From: Escherichia coli
Lineage (GTDB): Bacteria > Pseudomonadota > Gammaproteobacteria > Enterobacterales > Enterobacteriaceae
Assembly: GCF_048403405.1 (NCBI RefSeq)
Contig: NZ_CP183129.1
DNA: 64,000 nucleotides
Strand: one strand, 5' to 3'
The notes beneath the pieces are model-generated. The model had not been told where the DNA came from, searched no databases, and saw only the letters and a list, made by a program, of their open reading frames with translations. How positions within the stretch are numbered: position 1 is the stretch's first letter; every line of letters begins with the position of its first letter. The position numbers were made by a program, and so were the translations under genes. This document shows positions 9,956-21,597 of the stretch, piece by piece.

Positions 9956-10031
9956 GCCGGATAAGGCGCTCGCGCCGCATCCGGCAACGATGCCGACTGC
10001 CTGATGCGACGCTGACCGCGTCTTATCAGGC
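9956..10031. repeat. REP (repetitive extragenic palindrome) pair
   Basis: gccggataaggcgctcgcgccgcatccggc and gcctgatgcgacgc...gcgtcttatcaggc read directly between phnA and phnB. Confidence 0.75.
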
Positions 10032-10096
10032 TTCCCTCTCATCTGTATAAATTTCGAACTACACTTAAGTGGCTTCTCTTAACTGAGGTCACCATC

Positions 10097-10540
10097 ATGC
10101 CGTTAAGTCCCTACCTCTCTTTTGCCGGTAACTGTGCCGACGCAATTGCTTATTATCAACGTACGTTGGGCGCTGAACTGCTCTATAAAATCAGCTTCGG
10201 CGAAATGCCAAAATCAGCGCAGGACAGCGCCGAGAACTGCCCTTCCGGAATGCAATTTCCCGATACCGCCATCGCCCACGCCAATGTGCGCATTGCCGGA
10301 AGCGATATCATGATGAGCGATGCTATACCGTCAGGAAAAGCCAGCTACTCCGGCTTTACGCTGGTGCTCGATTCGCAACAGGTCGAAGAAGGAAAACGCT
10401 GGTTTGACAACCTTGCCGCTAACGGAAAAATCGAAATGGCCTGGCAGGAAACTTTCTGGGCGCATGGCTTCGGCAAAGTCACCGATAAATTTGGCGTACC
10501 GTGGATGATTAATGTCGTCAAACAACAACCAACGCACTAA
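10097..10540 (+). CDS. phnB: glyoxalase/VOC-family protein
   Basis: 147 aa ORF; K-12 phnB/yjdN position upstream of phnC. Confidence 0.8.
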   Translation: MPLSPYLSFAGNCADAIAYYQRTLGAELLYKISFGEMPKSAQDSAENCPSGMQFPDTAIAHANVRIAGSDIMMSDAIPSGKASYSGFTLVLDSQQVEEGKRWFDNLAANGKIEMAWQETFWAHGFGKVTDKFGVPWMINVVKQQPTH

Positions 10541-10566
10541 CCCGCCGGGAGGGCCGCCCTCCCGCA

Positions 10567-10628
10567 CTGTCATCGAAATCTCGTTAACTCTTCATCCGTT
10601 AGTCACTTTTAGTTAACAAAATCGTCAC
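10567..10628 (+). promoter_or_regulatory. PhoB-dependent phnC promoter: array of Pho-box half-sites with 11-bp periodicity
   Basis: 7-mers ctgtcat(10567), atctcgt, tcttcat, tagtcac, agttaac, tcgtcac(10622) spaced every 11 bp, followed by -10-like aataat 10629-10634; phnC ATG at 10673. Confidence 0.6.
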
Positions 10629-10672
10629 AATAATCCGCCACGATGGAGCCACTTTTTTAGGGAGGCTGCATC

Positions 10673-11461
10673 ATGCAAACGATTATCCGTGTCGAGAAGC
10701 TCGCCAAAACCTTCAATCAGCATCAGGCGCTGCACGCGGTTGATCTGAACATTCATCACGGTGAAATGGTGGCTCTGCTTGGGCCGTCGGGTTCCGGCAA
10801 ATCCACCCTTTTACGTCACTTAAGCGGTTTGATTACCGGCGATAAATCTGCCGGTAGCCATATCGAGCTGCTGGGCCGCACAGTCCAGCGCGAAGGCCGC
10901 CTGGCCCGCGATATCCGCAAAAGCCGCGCCAACACCGGCTACATCTTCCAACAATTCAACCTGGTGAATCGCCTGAGCGTACTGGAGAACGTGCTGATTG
11001 GCGCGCTCGGCAGCACGCCATTCTGGCGCACCTGTTTTAGCTACTTCACTCGCGAGCAGAAACAGCGCGCGTTACAGGCGCTAACCCGCGTTGGCATGGT
11101 GCACTTTGCCCATCAGCGCGTTTCCACCCTCTCCGGCGGACAGCAGCAGCGTGTGGCGATTGCCCGCGCGCTGATGCAGCAGGCGAAGGTGATTCTGGCG
11201 GACGAACCCATCGCCTCGCTGGACCCGGAATCAGCGCGCATCGTGATGGACACCCTGCGCGACATCAACCAGAACGACGGCATTACCGTGGTCGTCACGC
11301 TGCATCAGGTGGATTACGCCCTGCGCTACTGCGAACGCATCGTCGCCCTGCGCCAGGGGCACGTCTTCTACGACGGCAGCAGCCAACAGTTTGATAACGA
11401 ACGCTTTGATCATCTCTATCGCAGCATCAACCGCGTCGAAGAGAACGCGAAAGCTGCCTGA
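10673..11461 (+). CDS. phnC: phosphonate ABC transporter ATP-binding protein
   Basis: 262 aa; Walker [13 protein letters not shown] signature LSGGQQQR. Confidence 0.92.
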
Positions 11462-11485
11462 CATCCCCATCATTGAGGAAAACGA

Positions 11486-12502
11486 ATGAACGCTAAGATA
11501 ATTGCCTCGCTGGCCTTCACCAGCATGTTCAGCCTCAGCACCCTGTTAAGCCCGGCGCACGCCGAAGAGCAGGAAAAGGCGCTGAATTTCGGCATTATTT
11601 CAACGGAATCACAGCAAAACCTGAAACCGCAATGGACGCCGTTCTTACGGGATATGGAGAAGAAGCTGGGCGTAAAGGTCAACGCCTTCTTTGCCCCGGA
11701 CTACGCGGGCATTATCCAGGGGATGCGCTTCAATAAAGTGGATATCGCCTGGTACGGCAACCTGTCGGCGATGGAAGCGGTGGATCGCGCCAACGGTCAG
11801 GTCTTCGCCCAGACGGTCGCGGCGGATGGATCGCCAGGTTACTGGAGCGTGTTGATCGTCAACAAAGACAGCCCGATCAACAACCTGAACGATCTGCTGG
11901 CGAAGCGGAAAGATCTCACCTTCGGTAATGGCGATCCTAACTCCACCTCTGGCTTCCTCGTCCCCGGTTACTACGTCTTCGCCAAAAACAATATCTCCGC
12001 CAGCGACTTCAAGCGCACCGTCAATGCCGGGCATGAAACCAACGCGCTGGCCGTCGCCAACAAGCAGGTGGATGTGGCGACCAACAACACCGAGAACCTC
12101 GACAAGCTGAAAACCTCCGCACCGGAGAAGCTCAAAGAGCTGAAAGTGATCTGGAAATCGCCGCTGATTCCAGGCGATCCGATCGTCTGGCGCAAAAATC
12201 TGTCCGAAACCACCAAAGACAAGATCTACGACTTCTTTATGAATTACGGCAAAACGCCGGAAGAGAAAGCGGTGCTGGAACGCCTGGGCTGGGCCCCGTT
12301 CCGCGCCTCCAGCGACCTGCAACTGGTACCGATTCGCCAGCTCGCGCTGTTTAAAGAGATGCAGGGCGTGAAAAGCAATAAAGGGCTGAATGAGCAGGAC
12401 AAGCTGGCGAAAACCACCGCGATTCAGGCGCAGCTGGATGACCTGGACCGCCTGAACAACGCGTTAAGCGCGATGAGTTCGGTAAGTAAAGCGGTGCAGT
12501 AA
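11486..12502 (+). CDS. phnD: phosphonate ABC transporter periplasmic binding protein
   Basis: 338 aa with N-terminal signal peptide (…LLSPAHA). Confidence 0.9.
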   Translation: MNAKIIASLAFTSMFSLSTLLSPAHAEEQEKALNFGIISTESQQNLKPQWTPFLRDMEKKLGVKVNAFFAPDYAGIIQGMRFNKVDIAWYGNLSAMEAVDRANGQVFAQTVAADGSPGYWSVLIVNKDSPINNLNDLLAKRKDLTFGNGDPNSTSGFLVPGYYVFAKNNISASDFKRTVNAGHETNALAVANKQVDVATNNTENLDKLKTSAPEKLKELKVIWKSPLIPGDPIVWRKNLSETTKDKIYDFFMNYGKTPEEKAVLERLGWAPFRASSDLQLVPIRQLALFKEMQGVKSNKGLNEQDKLAKTTAIQAQLDDLDRLNNALSAMSSVSKAVQ

Positions 12503-12516
12503 TGTGCTCGATCGAT

Positions 12517-12603
12517 CCCCTCTCCCTTGAGGGAGAGGGTTAGGGTGAGGGGGAAATGCGCACGCTGATGCCCTCACCCCGGCCCTCTCCCACAGGGAGA
12601 GGG
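12517..12603. repeat. GC-rich nested palindromic intergenic repeat (three hairpin modules)
   Basis: ccctctccc-ttga-gggagaggg (12518-12539), gggtgaggg...ccctcaccc (12543-12580), ccctctccc-aca-gggagaggg (12583-12603) read directly between phnD and phnE. Confidence 0.6.
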
Positions 12604-12627
12604 AGAAAACATTAAACGGAGCAATAT

Positions 12628-13407
12628 ATGCAAACCATCACCATCGCCCCACCCAAGCGCAGCTGGTTCTCGCTTCTGAGCTGGGCCATTGTACTCGCCG
12701 TGCTGGTCGTCTCGTGGCAGGGCGCGGAAATGGCCCCGCTCACGCTGATCAAAGACGGCGGCAACATGGCAACCTTCGCCGCCGACTTCTTCCCGCCCGA
12801 TTTCAGCCAGTGGCAGGATTACCTCACCGAAATGGCCGTCACGCTGCAAATCGCCGTCTGGGGCACCGCGCTGGCGGTGGTTCTCTCCATCCCCTTTGGC
12901 CTGATGAGCGCCGAAAACCTGGTGCCGTGGTGGGTTTACCAACCCGTTCGCCGCCTGATGGACGCCTGCCGCGCCATTAACGAGATGGTCTTCGCCATGC
13001 TGTTCGTGGTCGCCGTCGGTCTCGGTCCGTTCGCTGGCGTACTGGCGCTGTTTATCCACACCACCGGCGTGCTCTCCAAACTGCTTTCCGAAGCGGTAGA
13101 AGCAATTGAACCCGGCCCGGTGGAAGGTATTCGCGCCACCGGTGCCAACAAGCTGGAAGAGATTCTCTACGGCGTGCTGCCACAGGTGATGCCGCTGCTG
13201 ATCTCCTACTCCCTCTATCGCTTCGAATCCAACGTCCGCTCGGCGACCGTCGTCGGCATGGTCGGCGCGGGCGGGATCGGCGTCACCCTGTGGGAAGCGA
13301 TTCGCGGTTTCCAGTTCCAGCAAACCTGCGCCCTGATGGTGCTGATTATCGTCACGGTCAGCCTGCTGGATTTCCTCTCTCAACGGTTGCGTAAGCACTT
13401 TATCTGA
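12628..13407 (+). CDS. phnE: phosphonate ABC transporter permease, apparently intact
   Basis: Uninterrupted 259-codon ORF with GGAG Shine-Dalgarno 8 nt upstream; polytopic membrane protein. Confidence 0.85.
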
Positions 13408-13427
13408 TAAGCGAGGCATTGATATCT

Positions 13428-14153
13428 ATGCACTTGTCTACACATCCGACCAGCTACCCAACACGCTATCAGGAGATAGCCGCAAAACTTGAGCAGGAGC
13501 TTCGTCAACACTACCGCTGCGGCGACTATCTTCCCGCCGAGCAGCAACTGGCGGCGCGCTTTGAGGTGAACCGCCACACCCTGCGCCGCGCCATCGACCA
13601 ACTGGTGGAAAAAGGCTGGGTACAGCGCCGTCAGGGCGTCGGCGTGCTGGTGCTGATGCGCCCGTTCGATTACCCGCTCAACGCCCAGGCGCGTTTTAGC
13701 CAGAACCTGCTGGATCAGGGCAGCCATCCCACCAGCGAAAAACTGCTGTCTGTGCTGCGCCCGGCCTCCGGTCACGTCGCTGACGCGCTGGGGATAACCG
13801 AGGGCGAGAACGTTATCCACCTGCGCACCCTGCGTCGGGTCAACGGCGTCGCGCTCTGTTTAATCGACCACTACTTTGCGGACCTCACCCTCTGGCCGAC
13901 GCTGCAACGCTTCGACAGCGGCTCGCTGCACGATTTTCTGCGCGAGCAAACGGGGATTGCGCTGCGCCGCAGCCAGACGCGGATCAGCGCCCGCCGCGCC
14001 CAGGCCAAAGAGTGCCAGCGTCTTGAAATCCCGAATATGTCGCCGCTGCTGTGCGTGCGCACCCTTAACCACCGTGACGGTGAAAGCAGCCCGGCGGAGT
14101 ACTCCGTCAGCCTGACGCGCGCCGACATGATTGAATTCACTATGGAGCACTGA
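13428..14153 (+). CDS. phnF: GntR-family transcriptional regulator of the phn operon
   Basis: ORF-track TTG start 13419 trimmed to ATG 13428, 241 aa; N-terminal HTH. Confidence 0.85.
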   Translation: MHLSTHPTSYPTRYQEIAAKLEQELRQHYRCGDYLPAEQQLAARFEVNRHTLRRAIDQLVEKGWVQRRQGVGVLVLMRPFDYPLNAQARFSQNLLDQGSHPTSEKLLSVLRPASGHVADALGITEGENVIHLRTLRRVNGVALCLIDHYFADLTLWPTLQRFDSGSLHDFLREQTGIALRRSQTRISARRAQAKECQRLEIPNMSPLLCVRTLNHRDGESSPAEYSVSLTRADMIEFTMEH

Positions 14154-14606
14154 ATGCACGCAGATACCGCGACCCGCCAGCACTGGATGTCCGTGCTGGC
14201 ACACAGCCAACCGGCTGAACTGGCAGCCCGCCTGAAGGCGCTGAACATCACTGCCGACTATGAAGTAATCCGCGCCGCTGAAACCGGCCTGGTGCAGATT
14301 CAGGCGCGGATGGGTGGCACCGGCGAACGCTTTTTTGCTGGCGACGCCACGCTCACCCGCGCCGCCATACGCCTGACTGACGGCACGCTCGGCTACAGCT
14401 GGGTGCTGGGGCGCGACAAACAGCACGCCGAACGCTGCGCGCTGATCGACGCGCTGATGCAGCAAACCCGCCATTTTCAAAACTTATCAGAAACTCTTAT
14501 TGCCCCGCTGAACGCTGACCGTATGGCACGCATTGCCGCACGCCAGGCCGAAGTAAACGCCAGCCGGGTCGACTTCTTTACGATGGTTCGCGGAGACAAC
14601 GCATGA
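14154..14606 (+). CDS. phnG: C-P lyase core complex subunit
   Basis: 150 aa; start abuts phnF stop (TGAATG). Confidence 0.88.
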
Positions 14607-15187
14607 CCCTGGAAACCGCTTTTATGCTTCCCGTGCAGGATTCCCAGCACAGTTTTCGTCGCCTGTTAAAGGCCATGAGCGAGCCGGGCGTGATTGTCGC
14701 CCTGCATCAGCTCAAACGCGGCTGGCAGCCGCTGAATATCGCCACCACCAGCGTGCTGCTGACGCTGGCCGATAACGACACGCCGGTGTGGCTTTCTGCG
14801 CCATTAAGTAACGATATCGTCAGCCAGAGCCTGCGTTTTCATACCAACGCGCCGCTGGTCAATCAGCCGGAACTGGCGACCTTCGCGGTAACGGATGAGG
14901 CGATTTCCAGCGAACAGCTCAACGCTCTTTCCAGCGGCACCGCTGTTGCGCCGGAAGCGGGCGCGACGCTGATTTTACAGGTCGTCAGCCTGAGCGGCGG
15001 GCGCATGCTGCGCCTTACTGGCGCGGGTATTGCCGAAGAACGAATGATCGCTCCGCAGCTGCCGGAGTGCATTCTGCACGAACTCACCGAGCGCCCGCAC
15101 CCGTTCCCGCTCGGCATCGACCTGATCCTGACCTGCGGCGAGCGGCTGCTGGCTATCCCGCGAACCACTCATGTGGAGGTGTGCTGA
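14603..15187 (+). CDS. phnH: C-P lyase core complex subunit
   Basis: 194 aa; ATGA overlap with phnG. Confidence 0.88.
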
Positions 15188-17850: not shown

Positions 17851-17933
17851 GCCGGATACGGCGTAAACGCCTTATCCGGCCGACAAATGCGCTCCCCGTA
17901 GGTCGGATAAGACGCGTCAGCGTCGCATCCGAC
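17851..17933. repeat. REP pair inside the phn operon (phnK-phnL intercistronic)
   Basis: gccggatacggcgtaaacgccttatccggc and ggtcggataagacgcgtcagcgtcgcatccgac read directly. Confidence 0.75.
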
Positions 17934-20747: not shown

Positions 20748-21506
20748 ATGAGCCTGACCCTCACACTTACTGGCACTGGCGGCGCACAGGGCGTTCCCGC
20801 ATGGGGCTGTGAGTGCGCGGCCTGCGCCAGAGCGCGGCGCTCATCGCAGTATCGCCGCCAGCCATGCAGCGGCGTCGTGAAGTTTAACGACGCGATCACC
20901 CTGATCGACGCCGGGCTGCACGATCTCGCCGATCGCTGGTCGCCCGGATCGTTCCAGCAGTTTTTGCTGACGCACTACCATATGGATCACGTGCAGGGGC
21001 TGTTTCCGCTGCGCTGGGGCGTGGGCGATTCGATCCCGATCTACGGCCCGCCGGATGAACAGGGCTGCGACGATCTGTTTAAACATCCGGGCCTGCTTGA
21101 TTTCAGCCACACGATGGAACCGTTTGTGGTGTTTGATTTACAGGGGTTACAGGTCACGCCCCTGCCGCTCAACCACTCAAAACTGACCTTCGGTTATCTG
21201 CTGGAAACGGCACACAGCCTGGTGGCGTGGCTGTCTGACACCGCTGGCTTGCCGGAAAAAACGCTGAAATTTTTACGCAATAATCAGCCGCAGGTAATGG
21301 TGATTGATTGCAGCCATCCGCCGCGTGCGGATGCGCCGCGTAATCACTGTGATTTAAACACCGTGCTGGCGCTGAATGAGGTTATCCGCTCGCCACGGGT
21401 GATTCTGACGCATATCAGCCACCAGTTTGATGCGTGGCTGATGGAAAACGCACTGCCGTCGGGGTTTGAGGCGGGGTTTGATGGGATGGAGATTGGGGTG
21501 GCGTGA
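20748..21506 (+). CDS. phnP: metallo-beta-lactamase-fold phosphodiesterase
   Basis: ORF 20709-21506 trimmed to ATG 20748 ([12 protein letters not shown]...), 252 aa; HxHxDH motif (THYHMDH). Confidence 0.9.
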
Positions 21507-21560
21507 TGGGATGGAGATTGGGGTGGCGTGATGGGATGGAGATTGGGGTGGCGTGATGGG
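21480..21560. repeat. tandem direct repeat, 25-bp unit gatgggatggagattggggtggcgt x3 plus a partial copy
   Basis: Units at 21480-21504, 21505-21529, 21530-21554 are identical; the first unit encodes the last phnP codons and the stop TGA 21504-21506. Confidence 0.9.
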
Positions 21561-21597
21561 GAGAATGTGCTCGCTGGCCCCCTCACCCGAGCCTACC

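Follow-up and report, generated by a model that had tools for sequence, protein, structure and literature searches.

An inverted pair of BoxC repeats between phnD and phnE of Escherichia coli, in an operon slot that is nearly always filled by a stable palindrome

A GC-rich palindrome lies between phnD and phnE in the E. coli DNA studied here (the window, meaning the whole 64-kb stretch that was analysed), and it raises the question of what this element is and whether it matters to the transporter genes on either side of it. The identity of the genes was clear. PhnD scored 375 bits against the NCBIfam equivalog TIGR03431 (cut-off 261), PhnE scored 311 bits against TIGR01097 (cut-off 217), and PhnC too lay above its NCBIfam equivalog cut-off. 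The RefSeq record of E. coli strain C4 is 100% identical to the region, and the genes are named phnD and phnE there. The gap from the phnD stop to the phnE start measures 125 nt, and the element is intergenic, standing between the two coding sequences. As a separate observation, phnE is intact in the window (259 amino acids), versus an annotated frameshifted pseudogene in K-12 ER2796. The features of the spacer and its two neighbours are as follows.

11486-12502, + strand: phnD, phosphonate ABC transporter substrate-binding protein, with its stop TAA at 12500-12502 (ORF list, TIGR03431 and RefSeq)
12503-12610 (108 nt), no strand given: composite repeat unit, made of left flank, BoxC type A, spacer, inverted BoxC type B and right flank (paralog alignment)
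12503-12517, + strand: left flank TGTGCTCGATCGATC, conserved among paralogous pairs
12518-12552, + strand: BoxC/TMECO type A unit, CCCTCTCCC TTGA GGGAGAGGG TTA GGGTGAGGG G (regex match to the TMECO pattern)
12553-12569, no strand given: central spacer, the loop of the long hairpin (sequence and fold)
12570-12603, - strand: BoxC/TMECO type B unit, reverse complement CCCTCTCCC TGT GGGAGAGGG CCG GGGTGAGGG C (regex match)
12604-12610, + strand: right flank AGAAAAC, conserved among paralogous pairs
12618-12621, + strand: phnE Shine-Dalgarno GGAG, outside the repeat and 6 nt 5' of the ATG (from sequence)
12628-13407, + strand: phnE, phosphonate ABC transporter permease, intact, with its ATG at 12628 (ORF list and TIGR01097)

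The first-pass annotation had described three nested hairpin modules at 12517-12603, and these were borne out by the sequence, by the inverted repeat with 27-nt arms that 12517-12603 forms as a whole, and by the predicted fold. Hairpin 1 is CCCTCTCCC-TTGA-GGGAGAGGG (12518-12539), the central hairpin is GGGTGAGGG...CCCTCACCC (12543-12579), and hairpin 3 is CCCTCTCCC-ACA-GGGAGAGGG (12583-12603), all read from the sequence. Since the halves of the element are inverted copies of one another, the RNA may fold either as three hairpins or as one nested long hairpin; the predicted energy was -57.6 kcal/mol for three separate hairpins versus -67.8 kcal/mol for the nested form. The 131-nt spacer fold reached -72 kcal/mol, versus -41.9 +/- 3.5 kcal/mol for 200 dinucleotide shuffles, none of which folded as well (z = -8.55). 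Shuffling the 64-kb window gave an expected count of 0.00 for the motifs that define the element, and the window itself contains them nowhere else. In the predicted minimum-energy structure the stem ends more than 20 nt 5' of the phnE start and leaves the conserved GGAG largely free; an ACGGAG motif is kept in nearly all of 79 orthologous phnD-phnE spacers from other species, whichever repeat is present. The same structure also contains a weak 5-bp helix closing a large loop, in which UGCUC of the left flank (12505-12509) pairs with GAGCA (12619-12623), overlapping the phnE Shine-Dalgarno sequence. This helix was predicted in a shorter E. coli allele with a 65-bp deletion as well, and was absent from the fold of the K-12 allele.

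The palindrome is almost certainly made of two BoxC repeats (alternative names PIT and TMECO) in inverted arrangement, type A on the + strand and type B on the - strand. The pattern CCCTCNCCC N3-6 GGGNGAGGG N3 GGGNGAGGG, applied as a regular expression, matched at 12518-12551 (+) and 12571-12603 (-), and nowhere else in the 64 kb. The - strand unit at 12570-12603 is letter-for-letter TMECO no. 1 of MG1655, and the + strand unit at 12518-12552 differs from TMECO no. 2 in its final base alone (PMC4666352, Table 1). In the window a type A unit, with a TTA loop, is thus paired in inverted orientation with a type B unit, with a CCG loop, and the same A+B inverted pairing is the rule for all five pairs of K-12 (PMC4666352). 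The closest relative of the element is the hrpB-mrcB pair of E. coli K-12, with about 94% identity over 108 nt. Alignment with that copy, in K-12 and BL21, showed homology running from TGTGCTC (12503) to GAGAAAAC (12610) and unrelated sequence beyond, so that of the extent first proposed, 12517-12603, the hairpins stood and the size of the repeat unit had to be revised. Four K-12 pairs have the same architecture and flanks, and in the three besides hrpB-mrcB the central spacer is 10 nt longer than in the window copy.

A search for further copies led to the same family. The 110-nt stretch 12503-12612, which contains the 108-nt unit, was used as the query against complete E. coli genomes, and 5,330 of 5,426 were matched, thousands of them at 94% over 108 nt, with a median of 10 and a maximum of 23 BoxC-related places per genome; the finding of no other copies, which would have told against the first-pass annotation, did not arise. 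Related places were found 53,962 times on chromosomes versus 39 times on plasmids. The identity of the element is in itself known, since the BoxC family, a dispersed and GC-rich one that occurs in E. coli and related bacteria, was described about 30 years ago, in the 1990s. Bergler in 1992, the Bachellier reviews, and Hoyne and Maher in 2000 and 2002 are said to have given the earlier accounts of the repeat. Its name changed over time from BoxC to PIT element and then to TMECO, and 23 copies have been catalogued in K-12, with 63 loci mapped in 56 strains (PMC4666352). The motif should therefore carry its proper name, rather than be presented as a novel repeat or regulatory RNA.

Several other readings of the element failed. 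It had been held to be unlike the REP units found elsewhere in the window, and indeed the REP core GCC(G/T)GATGCG(A/G)CG, with two substitutions allowed, had no match in 12503-12610, whereas clusters of it were found elsewhere in the window, including 9956-10031 (upstream of phnC), 17851-17933 and 32733-32765. One REP cluster lies inside the phn operon itself, in the phnK-phnL spacer, and is a second intercistronic palindrome of the operon; upstream of phnC, a partial, sub-threshold Rfam match to naRNA4, which is REP-derived, was seen at 10000-10032. A scan of 10000-15000 against Rfam 15 (E <= 1) placed no family on the hairpin at gathering threshold. The matches on the hairpin were eukaryotic miRNA models, at 20-27 bits versus thresholds of 55-88, and were taken as chance. 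The element is not a Rho-independent terminator either: no U-run follows the stem on either strand, the tail being AGAAAACAUUAAA. Nor does it resemble a MITE, as no target-site duplication was seen at the two insertion sites compared (the phnD-phnE and hrpB-mrcB junctions), its ends TGTGCTC and GAGAAAAC are not inverted repeats, and outside the BoxC cores it lacks terminal inverted repeats.

The other end of the operon also carries repeats. From the last codons of phnP onward, a perfect 25-bp tandem repeat, TGATGGGATGGAGATTGGGGTGGCG, runs for 3.3 copies (21479-21560), and the first copy still ends in the phnP stop (21504-21506); in a K-12-like strain the 25-bp unit is present once. Downstream of phnP, at 21566-21590, lies a truncated BoxC remnant, TGTGCTCGCTGGCCCCCTCACCC. 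The K-12-like strain has about 104 bp more after phnP; this extra stretch includes a complete BoxC, which is no. 22 in the TMECO list of Holder et al., as well as another hairpin. Among E. coli genomes the length of the phnP-yjdP spacer varies, matches to it spanning 274-396 bp. Among the supplementary entries covered here, Holder et al. name phnP-yjdP, and not phnD-phnE, as the phn TMECO of K-12 (PMC4666352).

The phnD-phnE spacer was followed through the 5,426 complete E. coli genomes, with spacers aligned from several strains. The alleles were distributed as follows.

REP-unit pair (K-12, NU14; including a variant shorter by 16 bp): 3,874 genomes, 71.4%
Full BoxC pair, window type: 348 genomes, 6.4%
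65-bp deletion derivative (strain EC1): about 897 genomes, 16.5% (obtained by subtracting the 348 full-pair genomes from the 1,245 in which the longer query was covered to 80% or more)
Lone BoxC-like hairpin, inverted together with its flanks (DSM 101139): 187 genomes, 3.4%

In the deletion derivative, the sequence between two direct CCCTCTCCC repeats has been lost and one perfect 9-bp hairpin is kept. In the inverted allele of strain DSM 101139, the left flank is found reverse-complemented together with the hairpin. All four of the other E. coli alleles folded were stable as well, at -50.5, -35.4, -24 and -23.5 kcal/mol. Comparison of these alleles shows a slot that, as read from their sequences, is unstable at the DNA level in E. 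coli, through deletion, inversion and replacement. All three kinds of change at BoxC sites are known as TMECO-associated instability, and deletions that leave a hairpin behind have been called the "palindrome effect" (PMC4666352).

This instability raises the possibility that the element matters as DNA: a triplex or cruciform would stall replication and drive local rearrangement, and its significance would be genome instability. We regard this as rather improbable. The locus does show a 65-bp deletion between direct repeats, an inversion and a replacement, and the second BoxC, after phnP, is truncated in the window. Type A and type B consensus oligonucleotides (purine-rich strand) formed an intrastrand triplex in vitro by CD and NMR, stable triplexes being obtained from oligonucleotides, and control sites vary less than TMECO loci; however, DMS footprinting gave no triplex in vivo, and a duplex formed whenever the complementary strand was present (PMC4666352). 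Instability is moreover a property rather than a demonstrated benefit, and a DNA-level role would leave unexplained the unrelated hairpins that stand in the same slot in distant genera. It is also compatible with a role in RNA, and the two are not exclusive.

From 80 PhnD-encoding loci of other species, with no Escherichia genome among them, 79 phnD-phnE spacers were extracted, and 77 of these contained a stable predicted palindrome, where stable means a minimum free energy of -15 kcal/mol or lower and a z of -2 or lower against mononucleotide shuffles, the 79 species not being phylogenetically independent. BoxC-type spacers made up 40 of the 79 and came from Enterobacter, Leclercia, Lelliottia, Kluyvera, Pseudocitrobacter, Buttiauxella and Yokenella, in the form of convergent pairs, divergent pairs, singles, deletion remnants and one double pair; independent deletions, a duplication and both orientations of BoxC were seen across these genera. 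REP-like spacers made up another 24 (Citrobacter, Salmonella arizonae, Cedecea). The remaining 15 were mostly other hairpins, a few of them REP-like in appearance, and the hairpins of Atlantibacter, Enterobacillus and two Vibrio were neither BoxC nor REP. A bare spacer of 22-23 nt without a hairpin was found in two genomes only, both Enterobacteriaceae (L084 and L085). The phnC-phnD spacer, taken from these loci as a control, had a median length of 24 nt and a median minimum free energy of -2.1 kcal/mol, and was 64 nt or longer in only 13 of 80. These 13 expanded spacers measured 64-309 nt, versus the usual 23-24 nt, with energies down to -104 kcal/mol; repeats therefore occasionally enter the phnC-phnD junction too.

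Two relatives deserve separate mention. PhnD of Pseudocitrobacter faecalis and of P. vendiensis is 99% identical to that of the window, versus 88-92% for Citrobacter and Enterobacter, and both species carry the same BoxC element with its flanks, P. faecalis as four units in a 251-nt spacer and P. vendiensis as a different, 64-bp deletion derivative in which the TTGA loop is kept. The identity of PhnD together with the shared BoxC suggests, from sequence likeness, that the phn region was recently exchanged with E. coli.

The same survey can be read in another way, namely that the element is a neutral selfish or junk repeat in a tolerant gap, with no effect on phn expression, and that the hairpins result from repeated insertion and replacement at a permissive site. 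This reading is a serious contender, although we consider it the less probable side of the question, at about a third of our confidence. It would account for four alleles at one site in E. coli, for the mixture of orientations, duplications and deletions across genera, for the 13 of 80 genomes in which the phnC-phnD spacer is expanded as well, and for L084 and L085, which do without any hairpin; published work likewise gives neither a function nor a positional pattern (PMC4666352). It sits poorly, however, with an occupancy of 77 of 79 at phnD-phnE versus 13 of 80 at phnC-phnD next to it, and with the unrelated, non-repeat hairpins found in the same slot in Atlantibacter, Enterobacillus and Vibrio. 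Furthermore, any mRNA stem of -60 kcal/mol is physically expected to hinder 3' exonucleases. The mildly new point of this work is the slot rather than the repeat: a stable palindrome from one of several interchangeable families nearly always occupies the position after phnD, and E. coli adds an allelic series of its own. The pattern holds in nearly all Enterobacteriaceae examined and in two Vibrio, while the neighbouring junction of the operon is usually bare.

That the BoxC pair acts at the RNA level, as an intercistronic stabilising or processing hairpin along the lines of the first-pass annotation, is in our estimate close to an even call, if anything falling slightly short of one; the broader statement, that the element is a BoxC pair and has a function in RNA, we would put a little on the favourable side of even. 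The proposed course of events is as follows. The pair would be transcribed within the phnC-P mRNA, because the spacer has no promoter-like or terminator-like signal (none of either was found in 12300-12800, terminators being scanned on both strands). In the mRNA it would fold into a very stable stem-loop just past phnD, and the stem would form a barrier to 3'-to-5' exonucleases such as PNPase and RNase II, as the REP structure after malE does; the near-continuous stem of about 30 bp might perhaps, speculatively, be a target of RNase III. After endonucleolytic cleavage in the poorly protected downstream region, phnCD mRNA would persist longer than phnE-P mRNA, and binding protein would be made in excess over permease. 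What evolution retains would then be "a stable hairpin after phnD" and not a sequence, BoxC being one of several interchangeable fillers.

A precedent for such an arrangement exists. Stem-loops at 3' ends protect the upstream segment of operons, including malEFG and other transporters, and in five E. coli ABC transporter operons the stabilised gene always encodes the substrate-binding subunit (Dar and Sorek 2018, PMC5927463). The window copy agrees with the malE-malF type in predicted structure: a stem-loop predicted at -68 to -72 kcal/mol stands right 3' of phnD, the gene whose product is expected in excess. The phn operon itself has no mention in Dar and Sorek 2018 (PMC5927463), and we found no literature on a phnD/phnE stem-loop. 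In K-12 under phosphate starvation, RNA coverage is uneven or falls along the phn operon (PMC3734233), a pattern compatible with differential decay, for the REP allele and at the scale of the operon rather than of this junction.

Other observations weigh on the opposite side. About 94% of E. coli genomes lack the element at this position, so this particular sequence is dispensable. The hairpin that survives in the deletion derivative needs no selection to explain it, because a deletion between direct repeats leaves a hairpin mechanically (the "palindrome effect", PMC4666352). Hoyne and Maher, as summarised by Holder et al. 2015, found for BoxC neither promoter nor terminator activity and no effects on RNA polymerase, and the TMECO of K-12 follow no positional or functional pattern (PMC4666352).

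Two further readings place the effect in the mRNA at other steps. A stem so close to phnD could disturb ribosome termination or release and thus lower PhnD output, a translation brake that we consider quite unlikely. The main stem begins at 12516-12517, that is 14-15 nt past the last base of the phnD stop (12502), and in the K-12 REP allele it begins 6 nt past the stop; Liang, Rudd and Deutscher reportedly observed in 2015 (Mol Cell) that REP within 15 nt of stop codons interferes with translation. The distance in the window, however, lies at the outer limit of the reported REP effect, distances from stop to stem vary widely among alleles and species, and such an effect would run against the surplus of binding protein that is expected to be needed. 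Stop-to-stem and stem-to-ATG distances read from minimum-energy structures of whole spacers proved unreliable, as their values depend on weak outer pairs, and were left out of account. Still less likely, and in our view very improbable, is a transcription attenuator or terminator that would allow just a fraction of transcripts to reach phnE-P. In its favour are the strong GC stem of the nascent RNA and the coverage that falls along the K-12 phn operon (PMC3734233), but there is no U-run past the stem on either strand, no terminator-like site was called, PIT/BoxC had no terminator activity in published tests (summarised in PMC4666352), and the 12 downstream genes, with no promoter-like site here, need read-through.

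Returning to an RNA-level stabilising hairpin, a more ambitious version of it may be put forward, though with distinctly less confidence. BoxC and REP would do the same job, as cassettes that protect mRNA and can be exchanged for one another; selection would be for "some very stable hairpin" after phnD, lineages would recruit BoxC, REP or a private hairpin to provide it, and the alleles of E. coli would tune the PhnD:PhnE ratio. We hold this only tentatively, as a possibility. The natural allelic series of E. coli offers a cheap test both of whether BoxC functions at the RNA level and of whether repeat turnover tunes the stoichiometry of ABC transporters.

The element may finally be set beside known systems. 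MITE-like enterobacterial repeats (ERIC/IRU, RSA, YPAL) are likewise short (about 100 nt), non-coding and dispersed, form a long hairpin, and may stand in either orientation at one site; the BoxC pair differs from them in having neither terminal inverted repeats past the cores nor a target-site duplication at two junctions. We know of no transposase for BoxC, the RAYT type included. With REP and BIME it shares a GC-rich extragenic palindrome right after the gene of an ABC binding protein, in a polycistronic mRNA, but the two sequence families are unrelated; stabilisation of mRNA has been demonstrated for REP and, to our knowledge, never for BoxC. The 3' protective structures of Dar and Sorek are alike in that a stable stem-loop bounds the segment expected to be more abundant and the structure is conserved across species. 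They differ in being defined by half-lives and Term-seq 3' ends, many of them inside coding regions, whereas the phnD-phnE hairpin is a prediction. The phnD-phnE copy is not among the 23 copies listed for K-12, because K-12 has REP there. From BoxC/PIT/TMECO as described, nothing essential differs in the window copy: both are intergenic and multi-copy with local instability, including deletion by the "palindrome effect", and the copy described here sits inside an operon, at a site where K-12 has REP.
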